Sequence record: OZ035813.1
Length of the DNA: 38,979 bases
Source: Kayfunavirus LM33P1
Strand: one strand, 5' to 3'
Position numbers and translations under genes: made by a program. Of this stretch, positions 3,369 through 16,273 are shown one piece after another. The notes under the pieces were generated by a model. The model was not told the origin of the DNA. It saw only the letters and a program-made list of their open reading frames with translations, and did no database searches. Position 1 is the stretch's first letter, and each line of letters begins with the position of its first letter.

Positions 3369-3580
3369 TCTCACACTTCAAGAACCTCAAGTCTCCCCAT
3401 AGGCCCTCTTTCAGTCCAGACCAAAGGCCCTACCCGTTACTGCTCCTTGCAGTCACAGCCAGTCTATCATAAGGTTGGACAGATGGTCAAGACTTAAGGT
3501 CAACGATAGGCTGAGGCTATGGCTTAGGGAAGGACGATAGGTTGGGACTATTGGTCTTCTTTGAGTCTCTATCTGTATAA
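3369..3580 (+). repeat. predicted direct terminal repeat / genome left end (collapsed single copy)
   Basis: begins TCTCACA like the T7 left end and ends GAGTCTCTATCTGTATAACC resembling the end of the T7 terminal repeat; boundaries approximate. Confidence 0.35.
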
Positions 3581-3700
3581 CCATAAGTCACAACCATAGG
3601 TCACAGCCTACCTCTCACAACCATAAGTCATAACCTACAGTCTCACTAACCTACAGTCTCAACCATAAGACACCAACACCTACAGTCATAGACCTACAGT
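3581..3700 (+). repeat. array of short direct repeats (CCATAAGTCA / CCTACAGTC) next to the predicted terminal repeat
   Basis: at least 9 copies of the 8-10 bp motifs within 120 bp; analogous to the CCTAAAG heptamers at the T7 left end. Confidence 0.6.
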
Positions 3701-4095: not shown

Positions 4096-4151
4096 ACTAA
4101 CTACAGGGCCTTTGAGTCTACATCTGAAGGCCCTGACTGATAGTCACTAAC
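4096..4151 (+). promoter_or_regulatory. early-region repeated hairpin element (copy 1)
   Basis: contains GGCCCTGACTGATAGTCACTAAC and a 7-bp stem CAGGGCC/GGCCCTG; lies just upstream of the first early ORF. Confidence 0.4.
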
Positions 4152-4158
4152 TTAAAGG

Positions 4159-4413
4159 ATGGACACTATGAAACACTTAAGCACAATCACTAATCGCAAT
4201 GAAGTATTCGTGAACACTAAAGGTTATGCGTGGATTCAGCTTAAAGAGATGACAGGAGCGCGTCACCGTGTGGTAGTGCGCAAGGTATCAAGCAAGCAGT
4301 TCAGCAACTACAGCGTCGATACTGTGCGTATAGACAACGAGACATACCTGATAGACTCGCAGATAACCGTGAGTCCTACAGTGGGCGTCTCAGCTCCTTA
4401 TTTCGCTAACTGA
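4159..4413 (+). CDS. hypothetical early protein, first gene after the host promoters
   Basis: 84-aa ORF about 90 nt downstream of the T7-like leader GCTCTTTAACAATCTGG; no recognisable motif; alternative ATG at 4168. Confidence 0.5.
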   Translation: MDTMKHLSTITNRNEVFVNTKGYAWIQLKEMTGARHRVVVRKVSSKQFSNYSVDTVRIDNETYLIDSQITVSPTVGVSAPYFAN

Positions 4414-4420
4414 GAGTGAT

Positions 4421-4468
4421 TAACTACAGGTCGTTAGACTGATAGCGGCCTGACTGATAGTCACTAAC
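4421..4468 (+). promoter_or_regulatory. early-region repeated hairpin element (copy 2)
   Basis: ACTACAGGTC..GGCCTGACTGATAGTCACTAAC upstream of ocr. Confidence 0.4.
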
Positions 4469-4496
4469 ACATAATTAACTTTGAGAGGATATAACT

Positions 4497-5000
4497 ATGG
4501 AACGTAATGCTAACGCATACTATGAGCTGCTGGCTGCAACCGTTGAGGCATTTATCGAGCGTATTCAGTACGACCACCTGACTCAAGATGACGACTACAG
4601 CGCTGCGCTGCATGAGGTCGTAGACGGTCAGGTTCCACACTATTACCACGAGATTTTTACGGTGATGGCTGCTGATGGTATAGACAACGAGTTCGAAGAC
4701 TCTGGGATGATACCTGAAACCAAGGACGTAACGCGTATCCTACAAGCTCGCATCTATGAGGCACTTTATAACGACGTGTCTAATAGCTTGGATGTAGTCT
4801 GGTTTGAGGATGAAGAGGCAGACGAAGAGGATGAATATTGGGTAGTTGACGCTAAAACAGGCGCAATAATTGTGCAAGCTGTAGCTCTTGAGGTCGCTAC
4901 TGCATGTGCCAAGGTCAACTATGTGATAGGTCGCCACCTTCAGGTGGAAGACATCAATGATAACGTAGTGTTTGACCCTGCTGCTGAGGACTGCGAGTGA
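4497..5000 (+). CDS. ocr: Ocr-like anti-restriction DNA-mimic protein (T7 gp0.3 homolog) with C-terminal extension
   Basis: residues 1-110 align with recalled T7 Ocr ([45 protein letters not shown] versus T7 [45 protein letters not shown]); acidic patch, then about 50 extra residues absent from T7 Ocr. Confidence 0.8.
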   Translation: [167 protein letters not shown]

Positions 5001-5149
5001 TGGTAACTTATGGCCTCTGCCAGCACCACGTCACTAACGCCCGGCTTATGGTCAAGACCGGGCAGTTAGACCACGATTGGGCTATGCGTCTCTTGAAAGT
5101 GGTCTACAGGAGACGCAAGCGTATACACGACAGTTTACACGCTAAGTGA
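5000..5149 (+). CDS. small basic hypothetical protein
   Basis: 49-aa ORF whose ATG overlaps the ocr stop (TGATG); ends just before a repeated hairpin element. Confidence 0.35.
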   Translation: MVTYGLCQHHVTNARLMVKTGQLDHDWAMRLLKVVYRRRKRIHDSLHAK

Positions 5150-5150
5150 C

Positions 5151-5196
5151 AGACTACAGGTCATCAATGCTGGTGGCCTGACTGATAGTCATTAAC
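5151..5196 (+). promoter_or_regulatory. early-region repeated hairpin element (copy 3)
   Basis: GACTACAGGTCA..GGCCTGACTGATAGTCATTAAC upstream of ORF 5213. Confidence 0.4.
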
Positions 5197-5212
5197 AACT
5201 GAGAGGGAAGAT

Positions 5213-6300: not shown

Positions 6301-8982
6301 ATGAGCGTCATCTCTATTGACAAGCACGACTTCTCTGATGTGTCGAACGCCATTGAGCCGTTTAACCTACTGGCTGACCACTACGGGCAAGACATTGCAG
6401 TCAAACAGCTTCAGCTTGAGCACGAGGCATACACTGAAGGCGAGCGACGTTTCATCAAGAACCTTGAGAGACAGACTGAGCGAGGGGAACTGGCAGACAA
6501 TCAGGTCGCCAAGCCTTTGATGCAGACTCTGGTCCCTAAGATTGCGCAAGCCGTCAAGGAGTGGCATGAAGGTCCAGACGGGAAGCTGTCAACCTCTCGT
6601 CCGAGCGTAGCGTTCACCATGTTGAGCACTGAAGAGAAGGCCGTAAAGGTCCGCTCTTTGCGCATCTCCTGCGAGTCTGCTGCGGTTATCATATTGAAGG
6701 TCATACTCTCCAAGCTGGTCAAGCCTGAAGGGATACCGATTACACCGATGGCCTCAGCGATAGGTCGCACACTTGAGGACGAAATCCGCTTCGGTCGCAT
6801 CCGTGACAAGGAGAAAGAGCACTTCAAGAAGGCGATAGCTGATAACCTGAATAAGCGGGCCGGGGCGTCCTACAAGAAAGCCTACATGCAAGCGGTCGAG
6901 GCATCCATGCTGGAGCAAGGCCAACTGGAAGATGCGTGGGGGACTTGGAGTCCGACCGAGGCTGTCCACGTTGGAATCAAGATGCTGGAGATTGTCATCC
7001 AGTCCACACAACTGGTCGAGCTTAAGCGTTACGGTGCTGGCAATGCAGCGGCTGACGTTGAGATGGTCCACCTGTCAGACTTCTGGGTCAAGAAGATGGC
7101 ACAACGAGGATTCAGCCTTGCGGGTATAGCTCCAGTCTACCAGCCTTGCGTCGTTCCACCTAAGCCGTGGACTGGTGTCGTAGGCGGTGGGTACTGGGCC
7201 AAAGGACGCAGACCATTACCACTGATTCGCTTAGGGTCTAAGTCTGCGGTAGCACGCTACGAAGACGTGTATATGCCTGAAGTCTATGACGCTGTGAACA
7301 TCATTCAGAATACACCTTGGAAAGTGAACAAGAAGGTTCTGGAAGTGGTGAACATGGTCGAGAAGCTGAACAACACGCCTATTGATGACATCCCTCAGAT
7401 GGAACCGCTGAAGCCTGAGGACTATGCGGGTGAGACTGAAGAAGAACTCAAGGCATGGAAGAAGGCTGCTGCTGGTATCTATCGCCGCGAGAAGGCCAGA
7501 CAGTCACGAAGATTGTCACTGAGCTTTATCGTCAACCAAGCGAACAAGTTCTCTCAGTTCAAGGCCATCTGGTTCCCGTATAACATGGACTGGCGCGGTC
7601 GCGTCTACGCTGTGCCGATGTTCAACCCTCAGGGTAACGACATGCAAAAGGGTCTTCTGACTCTGGCAGTCGGTAAGCCTATTGGTGCTGATGGTTTCAA
7701 ATGGCTGAAGGTCCACGGTGCAAACTGCGCGGGTGTCGATAAAGTCACCTTCGAGGAGCGTATCAAGTGGGTGGAAGATAACCACGACAACATCATGGCT
7801 GCTGCCAAGGCACCGATGGATAGCATTGAGTGGTGGGGCAAGTTAGACTCTCCGTTCTGCTTCCTAGCGTTCTGCTTCGAGTATGCTGGCGTAATGCACC
7901 ACGGCTTGTCTTACTCCTGCTCGCTGCCGATAGCGTTCGATGGGTCCTGCTCTGGGATTCAGCACTTCAGCGCTATGCTTCGCGACCACATCGGTGGACA
8001 TGCAGTAAACCTGACGCCATCCGGTAAGGTCCAAGACATCTACCGCATCGTGTCTGACCGCATTGAGGAGGAGCTTAAAGTCCTACTGGTTAACGGTACG
8101 GACAACGAGATGGTAACTCACGAGGACAAGAAAACTGGTGAGATTACCGAGCGTCTCAAGCTGGGGACACGAGAGCTTGCCCGTCAGTGGCTGACCTACG
8201 GTATGTCACGAAAGGTCACTAAGCGTTCGGTCATGACTCTGGCCTACGGGTCGAAAGAGTACGGCTTCGCAGACCAAGTTTACGAGGACATCGTGATGCC
8301 AGCGATTGACTCAGGGTCTGGCGCTATGTTCACTGAACCAAGCCAAGCATCTCGCTTCATGGCTAAGATGATTTGGGAAGCTGTGAGTGTGACCGTAGTT
8401 GCTGCGGTTGACGCGATGAAATGGCTTCAGGGTGCTGCCAAGCTGCTTGCTGCTGAAGTGAAGGACAAGAAGACTGGAGAAATCCTGAAGCCTTGTCTTC
8501 CGGTACACTGGGTCACACCTGATGGTTTCCCTGTCTGGCAGGAATACCGCAAGAAGGACACCACTCGTCTGAACCTGATGTTCTTAGGGTCATTCAACCT
8601 TCAGCCTACCGTCAACAAAGGCACGAAGAAAGAGCTGGACAAGCACAAGCAGGAGTCAGGCATTAGCCCGAACTTCGTCCACTCACAAGATGGTAGCCAC
8701 CTCCGCAAGACTGTAGTCCACACGCACCGCAAATATGGCGTGATGTCATTCGCAGTGATTCACGATAGCTTCGGGACCATCCCGGCTGACGCTGAGTATC
8801 TGTTCCGTGGAGTCCGTGAGACGATGGTCGAGACCTACCGCGACAACGATGTGCTGCTTGACTTCTACGAGCAGTTTGAATACCAGCTTCACGAGAGCCA
8901 GAGAGACAAGTTGCCTGAGCTTCCGAAGAAAGGTAAACTGAATATCGAAGACATCTTGTCTTCAGACTTTGCATTCGCTTAA
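6301..8982 (+). CDS. T7-like single-subunit DNA-directed RNA polymerase (gp1)
   Basis: 893 aa; characteristic T7 RNAP sequence throughout (for example PMFNPQGNDMQKGLLTLA, HDSFGT, AFCFEYAGV, C-terminal FAFA). Confidence 0.97.
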   Translation: MSVISIDKHDFSDVSNAIEPFNLLADHYGQDIAVKQLQLEHEAYTEGERRFIKNLERQTERGELADNQVAKPLMQTLVPKIAQAVKEWHEGPDGKLSTSRPSVAFTMLSTEEKAVKVRSLRISCESAAVIILKVILSKLVKPEGIPITPMASAIGRTLEDEIRFGRIRDKEKEHFKKAIADNLNKRAGASYKKAYMQAVEASMLEQGQLEDAWGTWSPTEAVHVGIKMLEIVIQSTQLVELKRYGAGNAAADVEMVHLSDFWVKKMAQRGFSLAGIAPVYQPCVVPPKPWTGVVGGGYWAKGRRPLPLIRLGSKSAVARYEDVYMPEVYDAVNIIQNTPWKVNKKVLEVVNMVEKLNNTPIDDIPQMEPLKPEDYAGETEEELKAWKKAAAGIYRREKARQSRRLSLSFIVNQANKFSQFKAIWFPYNMDWRGRVYAVPMFNPQGNDMQKGLLTLAVGKPIGADGFKWLKVHGANCAGVDKVTFEERIKWVEDNHDNIMAAAKAPMDSIEWWGKLDSPFCFLAFCFEYAGVMHHGLSYSCSLPIAFDGSCSGIQHFSAMLRDHIGGHAVNLTPSGKVQDIYRIVSDRIEEELKVLLVNGTDNEMVTHEDKKTGEITERLKLGTRELARQWLTYGMSRKVTKRSVMTLAYGSKEYGFADQVYEDIVMPAIDSGSGAMFTEPSQASRFMAKMIWEAVSVTVVAAVDAMKWLQGAAKLLAAEVKDKKTGEILKPCLPVHWVTPDGFPVWQEYRKKDTTRLNLMFLGSFNLQPTVNKGTKKELDKHKQESGISPNFVHSQDGSHLRKTVVHTHRKYGVMSFAVIHDSFGTIPADAEYLFRGVRETMVETYRDNDVLLDFYEQFEYQLHESQRDKLPELPKKGKLNIEDILSSDFAFA

Positions 8983-9625: not shown

Positions 9626-9805
9626 ATGTATCAGAACACTATCAACTTCGAGCGCATCCGTGAACGTCAGCAGACTGAAGGTTACATCCCTAAGGGCCGC
9701 AAGCTGAACAAGACTAAACGTGGAGGAGGTATCAAAGGTGCTTTCCGTAACGCTGAAGGTAAAGACTCTATGGTTAACCAAGAGAAATACTTCGTAGGAG
9801 CATAA
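9626..9805 (+). CDS. gp1.1-like small basic protein
   Basis: 59-aa ORF downstream of a phage promoter; KGRKLNKTKR motif matches recalled T7 gp1.1. Confidence 0.6.
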   Translation: MYQNTINFERIRERQQTEGYIPKGRKLNKTKRGGGIKGAFRNAEGKDSMVNQEKYFVGA

Positions 9806-10073: not shown

Positions 10074-11161
10074 TGACAACTATCAAAACTAACCCTCACC
10101 GCGCTGTAGATTACTCTGAGTCTGGAATTAAGAAGGCACTGGAAGCAGCCGGGTCTCTGGAAGCTGAAGTGAAGTACGATGGTGTGCGCCTGAACCTCCT
10201 GGTCCTGCGTGAAGGTGAGACCTACTGGCTTAGCCGCGAGTCGAAACCTCTACCAGCCTTGGAGTGGATGAACTCTGAGTTAGGTAATGCGTGGACCCAA
10301 GCTGACTGGCGATGGTTCCTGCGTCAATCCGGCTACGAAGGTGTGGGCATGATGATTGATGGCGAGGTCATGGTCAAAGGTGTAGACTTCAACACCTCCT
10401 CAGGTCTCATCCGAACGAAGTGGCTCAAGCCTAACAACGAGGAGTTCGCTGAATACTATTCGCCGGCGACTGGTGGAAAGAAGCTCCCGTTCTGGGGATC
10501 CCGGTCACGACTTCAGGTTGTGGTCTACGGTGTCATCGACATGACAACCATTGCTGACCCGAAAGCCGAAGGTCCTATCCATAGCGTCACACGCCTGAAG
10601 GCCGAAGCTATCGTCCCTCTCCTCCAGAAATACTTCCCGGAAATCGACTGGGTTCTGTCTGAGTCACACACGGTCTATGACCTTGAGTCTCTCAACTCCC
10701 TGTACGAAGAGAAGCGTCTGGAAGGACACGAGGGTCTGGTAGTCAAGGACCCACTTGGTAAATACAAGCGCGGCAAGAAGTCAGGCATGTGGAAAATGAA
10801 GCCGGAGGACACCATTGATGGGACCGTGTGTGGACTCGTGTGGGGGACTCCTGGTAAGGCTAACGAAGGTAAGATCATCGGCTTTGAGGTTCTACTGGAG
10901 GATGGCATGGTGGTCAACGCCTGCGGTCTGTCTGAAGAACAGAAGGACGGGTTTACGGCTAAGGTCAAGGAGGACACGCTTGCTGCGGTTGGCATCTTTG
11001 CGCCGTACGGCATTGGTGGTAACGAACCTTGCTTCGATAACCCATACGAAGGCTGGCAGTGTGAAGTCCTCTTCATGGAGAGGTTCCCTGATGGCTCCCT
11101 TCGTCACCCCAGCTTCAAGTGCTGGCGTGGAACCGAAGACAACCCAACGGTGAAGTCATGA
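10073..11161 (+). CDS. ATP-dependent DNA ligase (gp1.3)
   Basis: KYDGVR adenylation motif, EGHEGLVVKDP, SLRHPSF; start taken at ATG 10073 overlapping the gp1.2 stop (TAATG) to match the T7 N-terminus MxxIKTNP. Confidence 0.9.
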   Translation: MTTIKTNPHRAVDYSESGIKKALEAAGSLEAEVKYDGVRLNLLVLREGETYWLSRESKPLPALEWMNSELGNAWTQADWRWFLRQSGYEGVGMMIDGEVMVKGVDFNTSSGLIRTKWLKPNNEEFAEYYSPATGGKKLPFWGSRSRLQVVVYGVIDMTTIADPKAEGPIHSVTRLKAEAIVPLLQKYFPEIDWVLSESHTVYDLESLNSLYEEKRLEGHEGLVVKDPLGKYKRGKKSGMWKMKPEDTIDGTVCGLVWGTPGKANEGKIIGFEVLLEDGMVVNACGLSEEQKDGFTAKVKEDTLAAVGIFAPYGIGGNEPCFDNPYEGWQCEVLFMERFPDGSLRHPSFKCWRGTEDNPTVKS

Positions 11162-11445: not shown

Positions 11446-11700
11446 ATGTCTAAAAACTTAATGTTCAACCGATTTACTCGAAGCTTCCACCTGTCGCATA
11501 GCCCATTCAGCTTCCATAAATCTAATCAACCATTACCCCGCTTTGGTAAGACAGTGGCTCTGTCTCCCACAGTTCATGCGCTAGTCACCCGCAAGTCTAT
11601 GCTGAAGGCTATGGATAAAGAACAAGTCGATGTACCTGTGGTCGTTACAAAATGGCCTCGCATTAAGCTGGCCCTTCTGGTAATTAAGGAAGTGTTTTGA
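11446..11700 (+). CDS. gp1.6-like protein
   Basis: 84 aa; C-terminus TKWPRIKLALLVIKEVF resembles recalled T7 gp1.6 ending RLLLKRIKEVF. Confidence 0.65.
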   Translation: MSKNLMFNRFTRSFHLSHSPFSFHKSNQPLPRFGKTVALSPTVHALVTRKSMLKAMDKEQVDVPVVVTKWPRIKLALLVIKEVF

Positions 11701-12038
11701 TGGCATATTGTGATAGCACCACATACTGTGAAGCATGTAATGGTGATGACCGCTTCCCACACGTTGGTAAACTTGTAGGTAACAAGCTGCAAGAAATTGA
11801 TGGTGTACGCAAGCCATCCCACTATCAGGTCTTTGATGGCGTGGAATCCATTGAGATTATCGCACGGTCAATGACTGTGAGTGAGTTCCGTGGGTTCTGC
11901 ATGGGTAACGTCCTGAAGTATCGACTCCGGGCTGGTAAGAAGTCAGAGCTGGCAACTATGGAGAAGGACCTGAACAAAGCAGCCTTCTATCAGGAGCTGT
12001 TCGACCTGCATAAAGGTAAGTGCTATGCTTCCGAGTGA
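11697..12038 (+). CDS. gp1.7-like protein (nucleotide kinase family), short form
   Basis: 113 aa; KPSHYQVFDGVESIEIIARSMTVSEFRGFCMGNVLKYRLRAGKKSELA matches the C-terminal half of T7 gp1.7 as recalled. Confidence 0.65.
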   Translation: MMAYCDSTTYCEACNGDDRFPHVGKLVGNKLQEIDGVRKPSHYQVFDGVESIEIIARSMTVSEFRGFCMGNVLKYRLRAGKKSELATMEKDLNKAAFYQELFDLHKGKCYASE

Positions 12039-12116: not shown

Positions 12117-12275
12117 ATGACTGAGGTTGAGAAGAAATACATCGTGGAGCTTGAGGGTCGCGTTCAGTCCTTCGAGGTTCCGTTGTACGCAAAGTCTCTT
12201 GAAGAGGCTACCCTGAAGTCCCAAGAGTATGAGGACGCTGGGTTTGTGGTCGGACGGATTCGCCCTGAGACCTAA
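12117..12275 (+). CDS. host RNA polymerase inhibitor (gp2-like)
   Basis: 52 aa; [15 protein letters not shown]....[10 protein letters not shown] resembles T7 gp2 (HSFEVPIYAETLDEA...AGFEVTRVRP); stop TAA lies inside the next phage promoter. Confidence 0.7.
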
Positions 12276-12293
12276 ACTATCACTGTAGGACAG
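12271..12293 (+). promoter_or_regulatory. phage RNAP promoter (phi2.5-like, variant)
   Basis: CCTAAACTATCACTGTAGGACAG; +1 at 12288. Confidence 0.6.
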
Positions 12294-12332: not shown

Positions 12333-13025
12333 ATGGCTAAAGAGCAACTGAAGACTTTCACCACTCCGGTAGCTGGTATCGTTGAGCCTTACGCATGGCT
12401 GAACAAAGCAGACACCAAGTTTAATGAACGTGGTGAGCATAAGGTTAACCTGACGTTCGACCTGAGCGACCCGAAGGTCCGTAAGATGATTGATGTCTTA
12501 CAGAAGATTCACGACGATGCGTATGCGAAAGCACTCGCAGACCACGAGAAGAACCCACCTCAGGTTCAGCGTGGCAAGAAGCCTATTGAACCACGTGAAG
12601 GCGACATGCCGTGGATTGAGAATGGTGACGGTACTGTTACCCTTAAGTTTAAATGCTTTGCGTCTTACCTGAAAGACGGCAAGTCCGAGCCTATCTTATT
12701 ACGGTTCTACGACACCGATGCTAAACTCATCCGTGACGTCCCGAATATTAGCGCTGGCTCCAAACTGAAGGTCAAGTTTAAAGTCCTGCCGTTCAAGTGG
12801 AACGCTGCGACCGGTGCAAGCGTTAAGCTCCAGCTTGAGTCCTGCCTTCTTGTAGAACTGAAGGAGTGGAAAGGTGCTGGTGGTGATGGTGGCTGGGGTG
12901 ATGATGAAGACCTTGGTACTGGCTACAAAGCGCCAACCGATGGTGACTTCGGGTCTGATGCCTTCGGTGACGATGGTTCCGAAGGTGGTGACGACTCCAG
13001 CTCTGGTGGCGATTACGACTTCTAA
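12333..13025 (+). CDS. single-stranded DNA-binding protein (gp2.5)
   Basis: 230 aa; EPYAW, RGKKPIEPREGDMPW, SKLKVKFKVLPFKWNAATGASVKLQLES, acidic C-terminal tail ending in F as in T7 gp2.5. Confidence 0.9.
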   Translation: MAKEQLKTFTTPVAGIVEPYAWLNKADTKFNERGEHKVNLTFDLSDPKVRKMIDVLQKIHDDAYAKALADHEKNPPQVQRGKKPIEPREGDMPWIENGDGTVTLKFKCFASYLKDGKSEPILLRFYDTDAKLIRDVPNISAGSKLKVKFKVLPFKWNAATGASVKLQLESCLLVELKEWKGAGGDGGWGDDEDLGTGYKAPTDGDFGSDAFGDDGSEGGDDSSSGGDYDF

Positions 13026-13477
13026 TGGCCCAATGGTCTGCAAAACGGGGGCACTCTGTGGGTGCCTACCGCTCTGGACTTGAAGCCAAGAACCAGCAGT
13101 GGCTGGAACAGAACGGCGTCAAAGCGGAGTACGAAAGCCATTATATCAACTATGTGATTCCGGCTTCCGACCACAAGTACACACCAGATTTTATCCTTCC
13201 TAACGGTATCATCGTGGAGACCAAAGGTATCTTCGATAGTGATGACCGTAAGAAGCACCTTCTGGTACGAGAACAGCACCCAGAGTTAGACATCCGGTTC
13301 GTGTTCTCAAGTTCACGCTCCAAGTTATACAAAGGGTCTCCAACCACGTATGGCGCATGGTGCGAAAAGAACGGCTATAAGTATGCCGATAAATTCATCC
13401 CGGTTGAGTGGCTTCGAGAGGCGACTGTACGTCTGCCTTCAGGTATACTCATCCCCAAGAAGAAAGGAGTTAAGTGA
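13025..13477 (+). CDS. endonuclease I, Holliday junction resolvase (gp3)
   Basis: 150 aa; IPASDHKYTPDFILPNGIIVETKG, DDRKKHLLVREQHPELDIRFVFSSSRSKLYKGSPT closely match T7 gp3. Confidence 0.9.
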   Translation: MAQWSAKRGHSVGAYRSGLEAKNQQWLEQNGVKAEYESHYINYVIPASDHKYTPDFILPNGIIVETKGIFDSDDRKKHLLVREQHPELDIRFVFSSSRSKLYKGSPTTYGAWCEKNGYKYADKFIPVEWLREATVRLPSGILIPKKKGVK

Positions 13478-13968
13478 TGAGCAAGAAGTTTAAACTGTTA
13501 GTAGATGCGCATGGCTGGCCTAGTGGGACTATAGTTACCAAGTGTGAGAATGACCCCGTACCAGATTCAAGAATGACCCTAGTTGAGTGCCAGATTCCAG
13601 GCGCATACAAACATGGGTCTAACGGCTGCAATACTCAGCCTGAGGGTATGTGGGGAGCATGGGTCCTTAATTGGAAACTTGAGGAAATCAAGCCGGAAGA
13701 GAAACTCACTGGTGTCCAAACCACTCAAGTCCTGCCAGCTTCGAGCGTACCGCCTGTGACTTTGAAGCGTGAAGTCCTGACCATCGACAAGATTGGTGTA
13801 GGCCAGACGTTCATCGTCCATGGAAAGCCTGAAGAAGTTTACGTGAAGATTAGCAACTCACACGTCTTCAACCATAAGCATCTCCAGATGCACACCACGG
13901 ACGCACAACGCTTCACCCAGCACCTGAATCTGGTTGTCGTAGAATTGGTGGTGTACAATGGTAAGTAA
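13477..13968 (+). CDS. hypothetical protein inserted between endonuclease I and lysozyme
   Basis: 163-aa ORF with AAGGAG SD, start overlapping the gp3 stop; no counterpart at this position in T7 as I recall it. Confidence 0.6.
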   Translation: MSKKFKLLVDAHGWPSGTIVTKCENDPVPDSRMTLVECQIPGAYKHGSNGCNTQPEGMWGAWVLNWKLEEIKPEEKLTGVQTTQVLPASSVPPVTLKREVLTIDKIGVGQTFIVHGKPEEVYVKISNSHVFNHKHLQMHTTDAQRFTQHLNLVVVELVVYNGK

Positions 13969-14416
13969 GGTACAGTTCAATCCACGGTCCCGGACCGACG
14001 CTATCTTCGTACACTGTTCGGCTACCAAGCCAGAGATGGACATCGGGGTAGAGACCATCCGTATGTGGCACAAGCAGCAAGGCTGGCTGGACGTAGGCTA
14101 CCACTTTATCATCAAGCGCGATGGCACTGTGGAAGAGGGACGCCCGGTCAATGTCGTAGGGTCACACGTTAAGGACTGGAACTCACGGTCTGTAGGCGTC
14201 TGCCTTGTAGGTGGAATTGACGCTAAGGGCAAGTTTGAAGCTAACTTCACTCCGGCCCAGATGAACTCCCTGCGCAACAAGCTGGCTGACCTGAAGGACT
14301 TGTATCCTCAGGCAGAAATCAAAGCACATCATGACGTAGCACCAAAGGCGTGTCCAAGTTTCGACTTGCAACGCTGGCTGTCTACCAATGAACTGGTCAC
14401 TTCCGACCGAGGCTAA
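13958..14416 (+). CDS. lysozyme, N-acetylmuramoyl-L-alanine amidase (gp3.5)
   Basis: 152 aa; TDAIFVHCSATKP, GWLDVGYHFIIKRDGTVEEGR, HDVAPKACPSFDL, ELVTSDRG nearly identical to T7 gp3.5. Confidence 0.9.
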   Translation: MVSKVQFNPRSRTDAIFVHCSATKPEMDIGVETIRMWHKQQGWLDVGYHFIIKRDGTVEEGRPVNVVGSHVKDWNSRSVGVCLVGGIDAKGKFEANFTPAQMNSLRNKLADLKDLYPQAEIKAHHDVAPKACPSFDLQRWLSTNELVTSDRG

Positions 14417-14434
14417 ACTATCACCGTAGGGATG
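14412..14434 (+). promoter_or_regulatory. phage RNAP promoter (variant)
   Basis: GCTAAACTATCACCGTAGGGATG; +1 at 14429. Confidence 0.6.
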
Positions 14435-14479
14435 AGACCACGAGTCTTGTCCCTTTGTTCGCATTTGAGATTAAGAAAT

Positions 14480-14558
14480 GTCTCCATAGCTCAAACGGTA
14501 GAGCGGCGGGTCGTGATGGCCTATTGCGATTAGGGTTCGAATCCCCGTGGAGACGCCA
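14480..14558 (+). tRNA. tRNA-like element with encoded CCA; anticodon arm irregular, identity unresolved
   Basis: 7-bp acceptor stem GTCTCCA/TGGAGAC, D-arm TAGCTCAAACGGTAGAGC, T-arm GGGTTCGAATCCC with canonical TTCGAAT loop, discriminator G then CCA; the segment between D and T arms (about 26 nt) does not fold into a clean 5-bp anticodon stem by eye. Confidence 0.4.
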
Positions 14559-14569
14559 CTAAGGAGTGA

Positions 14570-16273
<1,704 letters not shown>

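Follow-up and report, generated by a model that had tools for sequence, protein, structure and literature searches.

Gene product 3.2 (gp3.2) of Escherichia phage LM33_P1 (genus Kayfunavirus) is a protein of 163 amino acids (aa), encoded between the genes for endonuclease I (gene 3) and the lysozyme/amidase (gene 3.5). It is built of a hypervariable, exchangeable N-terminal module, a linker and a conserved C-terminal module. Within the genus, the C-terminal half has the character of a core gene and is present in nearly all K1F-like phages. The N-terminal half alone behaves as an accessory, fast-evolving element. The gene is real, already named and catalogued, and uncharacterised; the two-module anatomy, the exchange of modules and an invariant motif are added by the present analysis. 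Reasonable candidate for an interaction with the host. The window, i.e., the whole stretch of DNA analysed, is the complete genome of LM33_P1 (LT594300 / NC_031937; 38,979 bp), rotated relative to the record so that window position 13025 corresponds to record position 9649. LM33_P1 infects E. coli strain LM33. The parts of gp3.2 in the window are as follows.

13477-13968, + strand: coding sequence (CDS) of gp3.2, 163 aa and TAA, from the list of open reading frames (ORFs); 100% identity to BOX15_gp20; PHROG 16385.
13477-13692, + strand: N module of type A, residues 1-72; predicted SH3-like beta-barrel, hypervariable and exchangeable.
13693-13755, + strand: linker, residues 73-93, rich in Pro, Thr and Ser, of varying length; predicted local distance difference test (pLDDT) <50.
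13756-13965, + strand: C module, residues 94-163; predicted SH3-like beta-barrel, conserved core throughout the genus.
13840-13914, + strand: invariant motif Y122-x3-S126 N S H V F N132-x4-Q137 M H T T141-x3-R145 F146, from alignments of homologues.

Identity and relatives

The ORF is annotated in the LM33_P1 record as BOX15_gp20, 'Phage protein' (100% identical). Its orthologue is gp3.2 of phages K1F (CAJ29361) and EcoDS1 (ACF15799). It matches PHROG 16385 with E=5.4e-95 (residues 1-163 against profile positions 1-157 of 157) and, with residues 94-163, PHROG 15211 with E=4.3e-39; the function of both families is unknown. Homologues form 255 protein clusters. When 1.84 billion cluster representatives were searched exhaustively with phmmer, only 15 proteins were retrieved, all of them members or fragments of the gp3.2 family.

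Proteins of K1F and EcoDS1 (PHROG 16385) share with that of LM33_P1 the position between genes 3 and 3.5 and the three-part architecture. Identity to LM33_P1 gp3.2 is 70% for the N module of K1F and 87% for the whole protein of EcoDS1. Proteins of the K1F type differ in a length of 157 aa, a linker shorter by 6-7 residues and the loops of the N module. A short gp3.2 of 74 aa (PHROG 15211) is found in Cronobacter phage Dev2, Citrobacter phages SH3-SH5, CLB_P1 and most Salmonella Kayfunaviruses. It aligns end to end with the C module of LM33_P1 (81-83% identity) and overlaps the amidase start in the same way, but wholly lacks the N module and the linker; gp3.2 of LM33_P1 is the N-terminally extended form.

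No match for gp3.2 was obtained in Pfam or NCBIfam, including enzyme families, nucleic-acid-binding families and HNH, GIY-YIG or other homing-endonuclease signatures; the Pfam profiles DUF2829 (Tad2) and FeoA gave no match. Profiles built from the complete protein and from the C module alone retrieved no relative among PDB sequences. PADLOC-DB, a library of catalogued defence-system proteins, gave no match for LM33_P1 gp3.2, and two variants only chance-level ones (E>0.002). These searches bear out the absence of a recognisable motif reported in a preliminary description of the locus. When all ORFs of phage T7 were compared with profile hidden Markov models (HMMs) of the C module and of three N modules (A, B and C), the scores stayed <6 bits; gp3.2 is therefore without a counterpart elsewhere in T7.

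The preliminary description regarded the ORF as an unknown gene inserted between genes 3 and 3.5. It is indeed absent from T7, and the locus is a hotspot of diversity; gp3.2 is, however, a known gene of genus-wide distribution and not an individual insertion. As to homology with a conserved T7-group gene of established function, the gene is known and conserved, but no functional study was found in the literature searched for gp3.2, K1F, Kayfunavirus, anti-defence, escape mutants and accessory-gene screens. The sole phage paper found by full-text searches to name gp3.2 mentions it in a gene table only.

Description of the C module

Present in 219 phage records (tblastn), immediately upstream of or overlapping the amidase gene in every match listed. 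Hosts of these phages include Escherichia, Salmonella, Enterobacter, Citrobacter, Cronobacter, Klebsiella, Shigella, Providencia, Morganella, Hafnia and Pectobacterium. For scale, a lysozyme at least 80% identical to that of LM33_P1 occurs in 232 records, against 219 with the C module; about 1,100 other T7-like phages (lysozyme 40-80% identical) are not among the C-module matches.

In pairwise comparison of 25 loci, the ratio of nonsynonymous to synonymous divergence (dN/dS, omega) of the C module is 0.11-0.14 at dS of 0.46-0.88. Omega of the flanking genes in the same comparison is 0.11-0.12 for lysozyme and 0.06-0.07 for endonuclease. Low omega with substantial dS indicates that selection acts on the protein and not on a hidden DNA element. 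Conservation as a DNA or RNA element or as an overlapping frame was considered and rejected (dS high, dN low, no internal promoter). The 25-residue motif is invariant across Kayfunavirus and a distant clade of Providencia phages.

A C module 91% identical to that of LM33_P1 adjoins the amidase gene in phage EFA-1 (MT350292, record positions 10846-11037). EFA-1 is labelled as a phage of Enterococcus faecalis; its genome of 40.7 kb is of Kayfunavirus-like size, and the host label looks doubtful. Copies of gp3.2 frameshifted or truncated after the N module occur in Escherichia virus TH20 (record marked UNVERIFIED; L080 898-1206) and in metagenomic P0123, P0130, P0132 and P0133. These may be sequencing errors or real pseudogenes.

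Description of the N module

Among isolate records, N modules are of type A in 55 (mostly Escherichia phages), type B in 27, type C in 4, type D in 2 and type E in 11, eight of the latter being Enterobacter phages. Type F is found in metagenomes only. About 120 of the 219 isolates (~55%, by subtraction) have no N module and encode the 74-aa C module alone. At least five other N modules have no detectable sequence relationship to type A; hhalign probabilities are <15% among the three tested. Proteins with both A and B modules exist (221-227 aa), and natural deletion derivatives (P0136, P0137) retain the first few codons and the linker. In every match listed by the module searches the N module is placed at the gp3.2 locus. 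No N module was detected outside gp3.2 within the LM33_P1 genome and the loci retrieved.

Substitutions were counted by parsimony (SLAC-like) in 23 distinct type-A genes. The N module has 5.4 nonsynonymous and 2.9 synonymous changes per codon (omega 0.52); the C module has 0.94 and 2.4, respectively (omega 0.12). In pairwise comparison, dN of the N module is five times that of the C module. Nonsynonymous changes are concentrated in patches of loops (residues 8-12, 28-33, 43, 49-52 and 64-67). The core of the type A barrel is fixed: GWPxGTIVTKC, TLVE and GMWGAWV. Over seven type-A genomes, diversity in a sliding window peaks at 26-36% at 13464-13689, coinciding with the N module. Most flanking windows have 1-7%, the range of gene 2.5 and of the lysozyme gene; the C module has 6-15%, and the 5' half of gene 3 reaches 18%.

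N and C modules reassort. L005 and L006 carry the same N module with different C alleles; in L053 a K1F-like N module is joined to a C allele typical of the short 74-aa class.

Description of the Providencia-phage clade

A sister clade is represented by Providencia phage PSTCR2 (QPB11931, 152 aa) and about 35 related clusters, drawn from T7-like contigs of 39-40 kb. Proteins of 142-156 aa, encoded directly after endonuclease I. Like gp3.2, they combine N modules that vary and a variable linker with an invariant C module that carries the motif Y-x3-SNSHVFN-x4-QMHTT-x3-RF. They differ in a C module only 43-49% identical, in other families of N modules and in a short conserved WYDEKSAMRE connector. 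In PSTCR2 (L026 2705-3278) the gp3.2 homologue is separated from the endolysin by two small genes, of 117 and 79 aa. The product of the first turns up again in P0147, where it forms the N-terminal portion in front of a C module; this fusion is possibly an assembly chimera, since the contig is only 551 bp.

Predicted structure

Both modules are predicted by a confident model to be small SH3-like beta-barrels of five- or six-stranded topology. In the first structure prediction, made with 51 close homologues, pLDDT of the C module was <50; a confident fold was obtained only after distant homologues were added. According to the model, the motif extends over the hairpin that joins two strands, the strand after it and a short helix. 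Fold neighbours of the predicted barrels are EF-P domain I, ribosomal L2, the OapB KOW-like protein and RimP. Such matches are generic: a likeness of predicted fold class that carries no specific function. The same applies to SH3-like barrels at large (eukaryotic SH3, FeoA, EF-P domain I/KOW, L2 C-domain, Tudor), with which the fold class, but no sequence similarity, is shared. The linker is predicted to be disordered. Its length variants arise via short duplications (TGVQTT twice in P0022, PEVGEQT twice in P0113), and in the variants of 221-227 aa an extra module of 65 aa sits within it. Origin of the modules as diverged duplicates of each other was rejected (hhalign probabilities <15% for A, B, C and the C-terminal module).

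Genomic setting

The flanking features in the window are as follows.

12266-12290, + strand: phage RNA polymerase promoter, phi2.5-like; member of the 11-copy family CTAAACTATCACTATAGGR; upstream of gene 2.5, heads the 2.5-3-3.2-3.5 unit.
13025-13477, + strand: gene 3, endonuclease I, 150 aa; Pfam PF05367, E=2.8e-81; from the ORF list.
13464-13469, + strand: Shine-Dalgarno sequence AAGGAG, 7 nt 5' of the gp3.2 ATG; read from the sequence.
13958-14416, + strand: gene 3.5, lysozyme/amidase (Amidase_2), 152 aa; Pfam PF01510, E=8e-17; from the ORF list.

The gp3.2 gene starts with ATG at 13477 and ends with TAA at 13966-13968. The stop codon TGA of gene 3 (13475-13477) has its A in common with this ATG (TGATG). 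The lysozyme ATG at 13958 falls within the gp3.2 ORF, with an overlap of 11 nt. In every locus of K1F-like phages inspected gp3.2 lies between endonuclease I and the amidase and overlaps both. Genes 3 and 3.5 of T7 abut (10257-10706 and 10706-11161). The ORF of 163 aa, its Shine-Dalgarno sequence, both overlaps and the adjacency of the two genes in T7 were thus correctly given in the preliminary description.

The consensus of the phage promoter, CTAAACTATCACTATAGGR, is present in 11 copies in the genome. A motif scan of the genome revealed no copy between 12266-12290 and the end of the lysozyme gene, and none within gp3.2; the gene therefore belongs to the 2.5-3-3.2-3.5 middle transcription unit. 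A weaker promoter-like variant, CTAAACTATCACCGTAGGGA, occurs at 14413-14435 and overlaps the lysozyme stop. Purifying selection, 255 homologue clusters, 219 records and the promoter layout agree with the earlier view of a real, translationally coupled gene of the middle class.

In LM33_P1, no + strand ORF of 40 aa or more lies wholly within the 156-nt gap between lysozyme and primase (14417-14572). The same gap contains a full-length gp3.7 in K1F and a shorter ORF annotated gp3.7 in EcoDS1. An apparent insertion between genes 2.5 and 3, suggested by multiple alignment, was not upheld; the two genes abut in the one relative checked.

Possible function

The favoured reading, held tentatively and at a little under even probability, is that gp3.2 is a non-enzymatic modular binder acting in host takeover. 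Binding instead of catalysis is our inference, and so is what is said of the two partners and of a connection with host defence. Middle-expressed and presumably cytoplasmic, the protein would most likely bind rather than catalyse. The invariant polar, His-rich surface of the C barrel (SNSH...N...Q-H-TT...RF) would dock on a partner that is invariant between Enterobacterales hosts, be it conserved machinery of the host or a protein of the phage. The N barrel would be an optional specificity module that recognises a variable host factor and either couples it to the partner of the C module or blocks it together with that partner. By this means gp3.2 would be a modular host-takeover or counter-defence binder. 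In a plug-and-play version of this scheme, which is doubtful, the C barrel would dock on a conserved hub, and swapped N barrels, exchanged by recombination at the conserved linker, would capture strain-specific host factors, e.g., a defence protein; such a scaffold would carry over to the cytoplasm the principle of tail fibres, a conserved anchor with a variable tip. A specifically anti-defence role, suggested as a candidate in the preliminary description, is compatible with the behaviour of the N module and is judged unlikely.

The modular binder is favoured by a C module kept as a core under purifying selection, by the variability, exchange and reassortment of the N modules, by the retention of the design in the sister clade, by some host bias of the N modules (A mostly in Escherichia phages, E in 8/11 cases in Enterobacter phages), by the lack of a match to any enzyme family and by a size and genomic class like those of the T7 class II host inhibitors. 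The latter (gp2, gp4.5, gp5.5, gp5.7 and gp5.9) are small products of middle genes, presumed to be stoichiometric binders. gp3.2 resembles them in being a similarly small product of a middle gene interleaved with genes of DNA metabolism; it has no homology to them, and they do not have a two-module build with one conserved and one exchangeable part. The tethered adaptor SspB combines a small beta-barrel, a flexible linker and a conserved docking element and is an analogy to gp3.2 only. No homology of gp3.2 was found either to SspB or to the anti-Thoeris sponge Tad2, and DUF2829 is not matched.

Several observations weigh against the modular binder. The binding partners of gp3.2 are putative. 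About 55% of isolates do without the N module, which is thus dispensable in many hosts. Phages of the same K1 host type carry different modules, A in K1F and B in Pipis (on UTI89) and PhiNW-B1, and a simple host-specific reading is weakened by this. No site of the N module reaches p<0.05 for dN>dS in the counting test; the best, at p=0.07, is suggestive. dS of the N module is ~1.1, near saturation, so old recombining alleles, and not positive selection alone, contribute to its diversity. The two invariant His residues together with Ser, Asn, Thr and Arg could equally form a small-ligand or catalytic site.

Other explanations differ in the role given to the C module. gp3.2 may act on the phage itself and regulate, as an accessory factor, phage DNA metabolism or transcription, its C module binding and tuning a phage protein (e.g., endonuclease I, the lysozyme/RNA polymerase inhibitor, RNA polymerase or the replisome), with the N module a secondary add-on. 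This is unlikely. It is consistent with a C module near-universal in the genus and as constrained as its neighbours (omega 0.11 vs 0.12 for lysozyme and 0.06 for endonuclease), with a gene always located between genes 3 and 3.5, translationally coupled to both and cotranscribed with genes 2.5, 3 and 3.5, and with its retention directly after endonuclease I in the sister clade. However, T7 and ~1,100 T7-like phages use the same enzymes without gp3.2, the two genes before the endolysin of PSTCR2 indicate that coupling to gene 3.5 is not obligatory, tight packing is usual in class II regions of T7-like phages and is a weak sign of interaction, and the turnover of N modules is left unexplained. 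With somewhat poorer prospects, the C module may bind a small ligand or metal, either as a sponge of immune-signalling nucleotides or through a metal-dependent site on the His/Ser/Asn/Thr/Arg cluster. Invariance of SNSH...Q-H-TT...RF even at 43-49% identity fits an unchangeable ligand, and known sponges are similar in size; but no Pfam match to DUF2829 (Tad2), FeoA or another family was obtained, and a sponge leaves the variable N module without a role.

It is improbable that gp3.2 is a nucleic-acid binder with tandem barrels of the KOW/Tudor/L2 type acting on phage or host RNA or DNA. The fold neighbours listed above and the adjoining genes, which act on DNA, point in that direction; neither module is markedly basic or acidic as read by eye, no nucleic-acid-binding family is matched, and hypervariable loops are unusual for such proteins. 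Negligible probability is assigned to the view that the ORF is a remnant without function, or a selfish one (for instance, the decayed gene of a mobile element), kept only by its place between two essential genes. The junction does take foreign sequence (different N modules, the extra genes of PSTCR2), and copies with frameshifts are seen in assemblies from metagenomes and in TH20, whose record is unverified. Nevertheless, omega of 0.12 over high synonymous divergence effectively refutes a remnant, and the C module is kept in 219 records, its 25-residue motif in two clades, with no homing-endonuclease signature. Genes 2.8, 3.8 and 7.7 of T7 are homing-endonuclease inserts; unlike these, gp3.2 has no endonuclease motif, and its distribution is genus-wide, not sporadic.

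Other features of the genome

The homologue of gene 1.7 (11700-12038; 112 aa, annotated as nucleotide kinase) has a shared C-terminal part (KPSHYQVFDGVESIEII...). Its N-terminal part appears by eye unrelated to that of the 146-aa orthologue of phage ST31 (L007 385-825); gp1.7 of K1F has 155 aa. Here, in a second gene of the middle class, the N-terminus varies and the C-terminus is conserved. RNA polymerase is encoded by one intact ORF of 893 aa at 6301-8982. NC_031937 has two CDSs in its place ('N4-like RNA polymerase' and 'RNA polymerase'); since the ORF is intact, the division into two is an artefact of annotation. Four closely spaced copies of AACCATAAGTCACAACC lie at 3579-3677, ~200 nt to the right of record position 1 (window 3377), and may be terminal-repeat-adjacent repeats as in T7-like genomes. 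Three copies of an element of ~30 nt with the core CCTGACTGATAGTCAYTAAC are found in the early region, at 4123-5197, and may be early host RNA polymerase promoters or regulatory sites.

Significance

Kayfunavirus (K1F-like) phages are widely isolated for therapy, against capsulated or O-antigen-typed E. coli, Salmonella Typhi, Enterobacter and related bacteria. gp3.2 is among the few genes that set the genus apart from T7. It is now a defined experimental object: a 70-residue barrel with an invariant surface, a peak of diversity in the N module, and natural swaps and deletions as controls. If the N modules do not target strain-specific host factors, gp3.2 would be an ordinary conserved accessory gene. 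If they do, the modules would make up a compact catalogue of post-adsorption determinants of host range, useful for choosing or engineering therapeutic phages.
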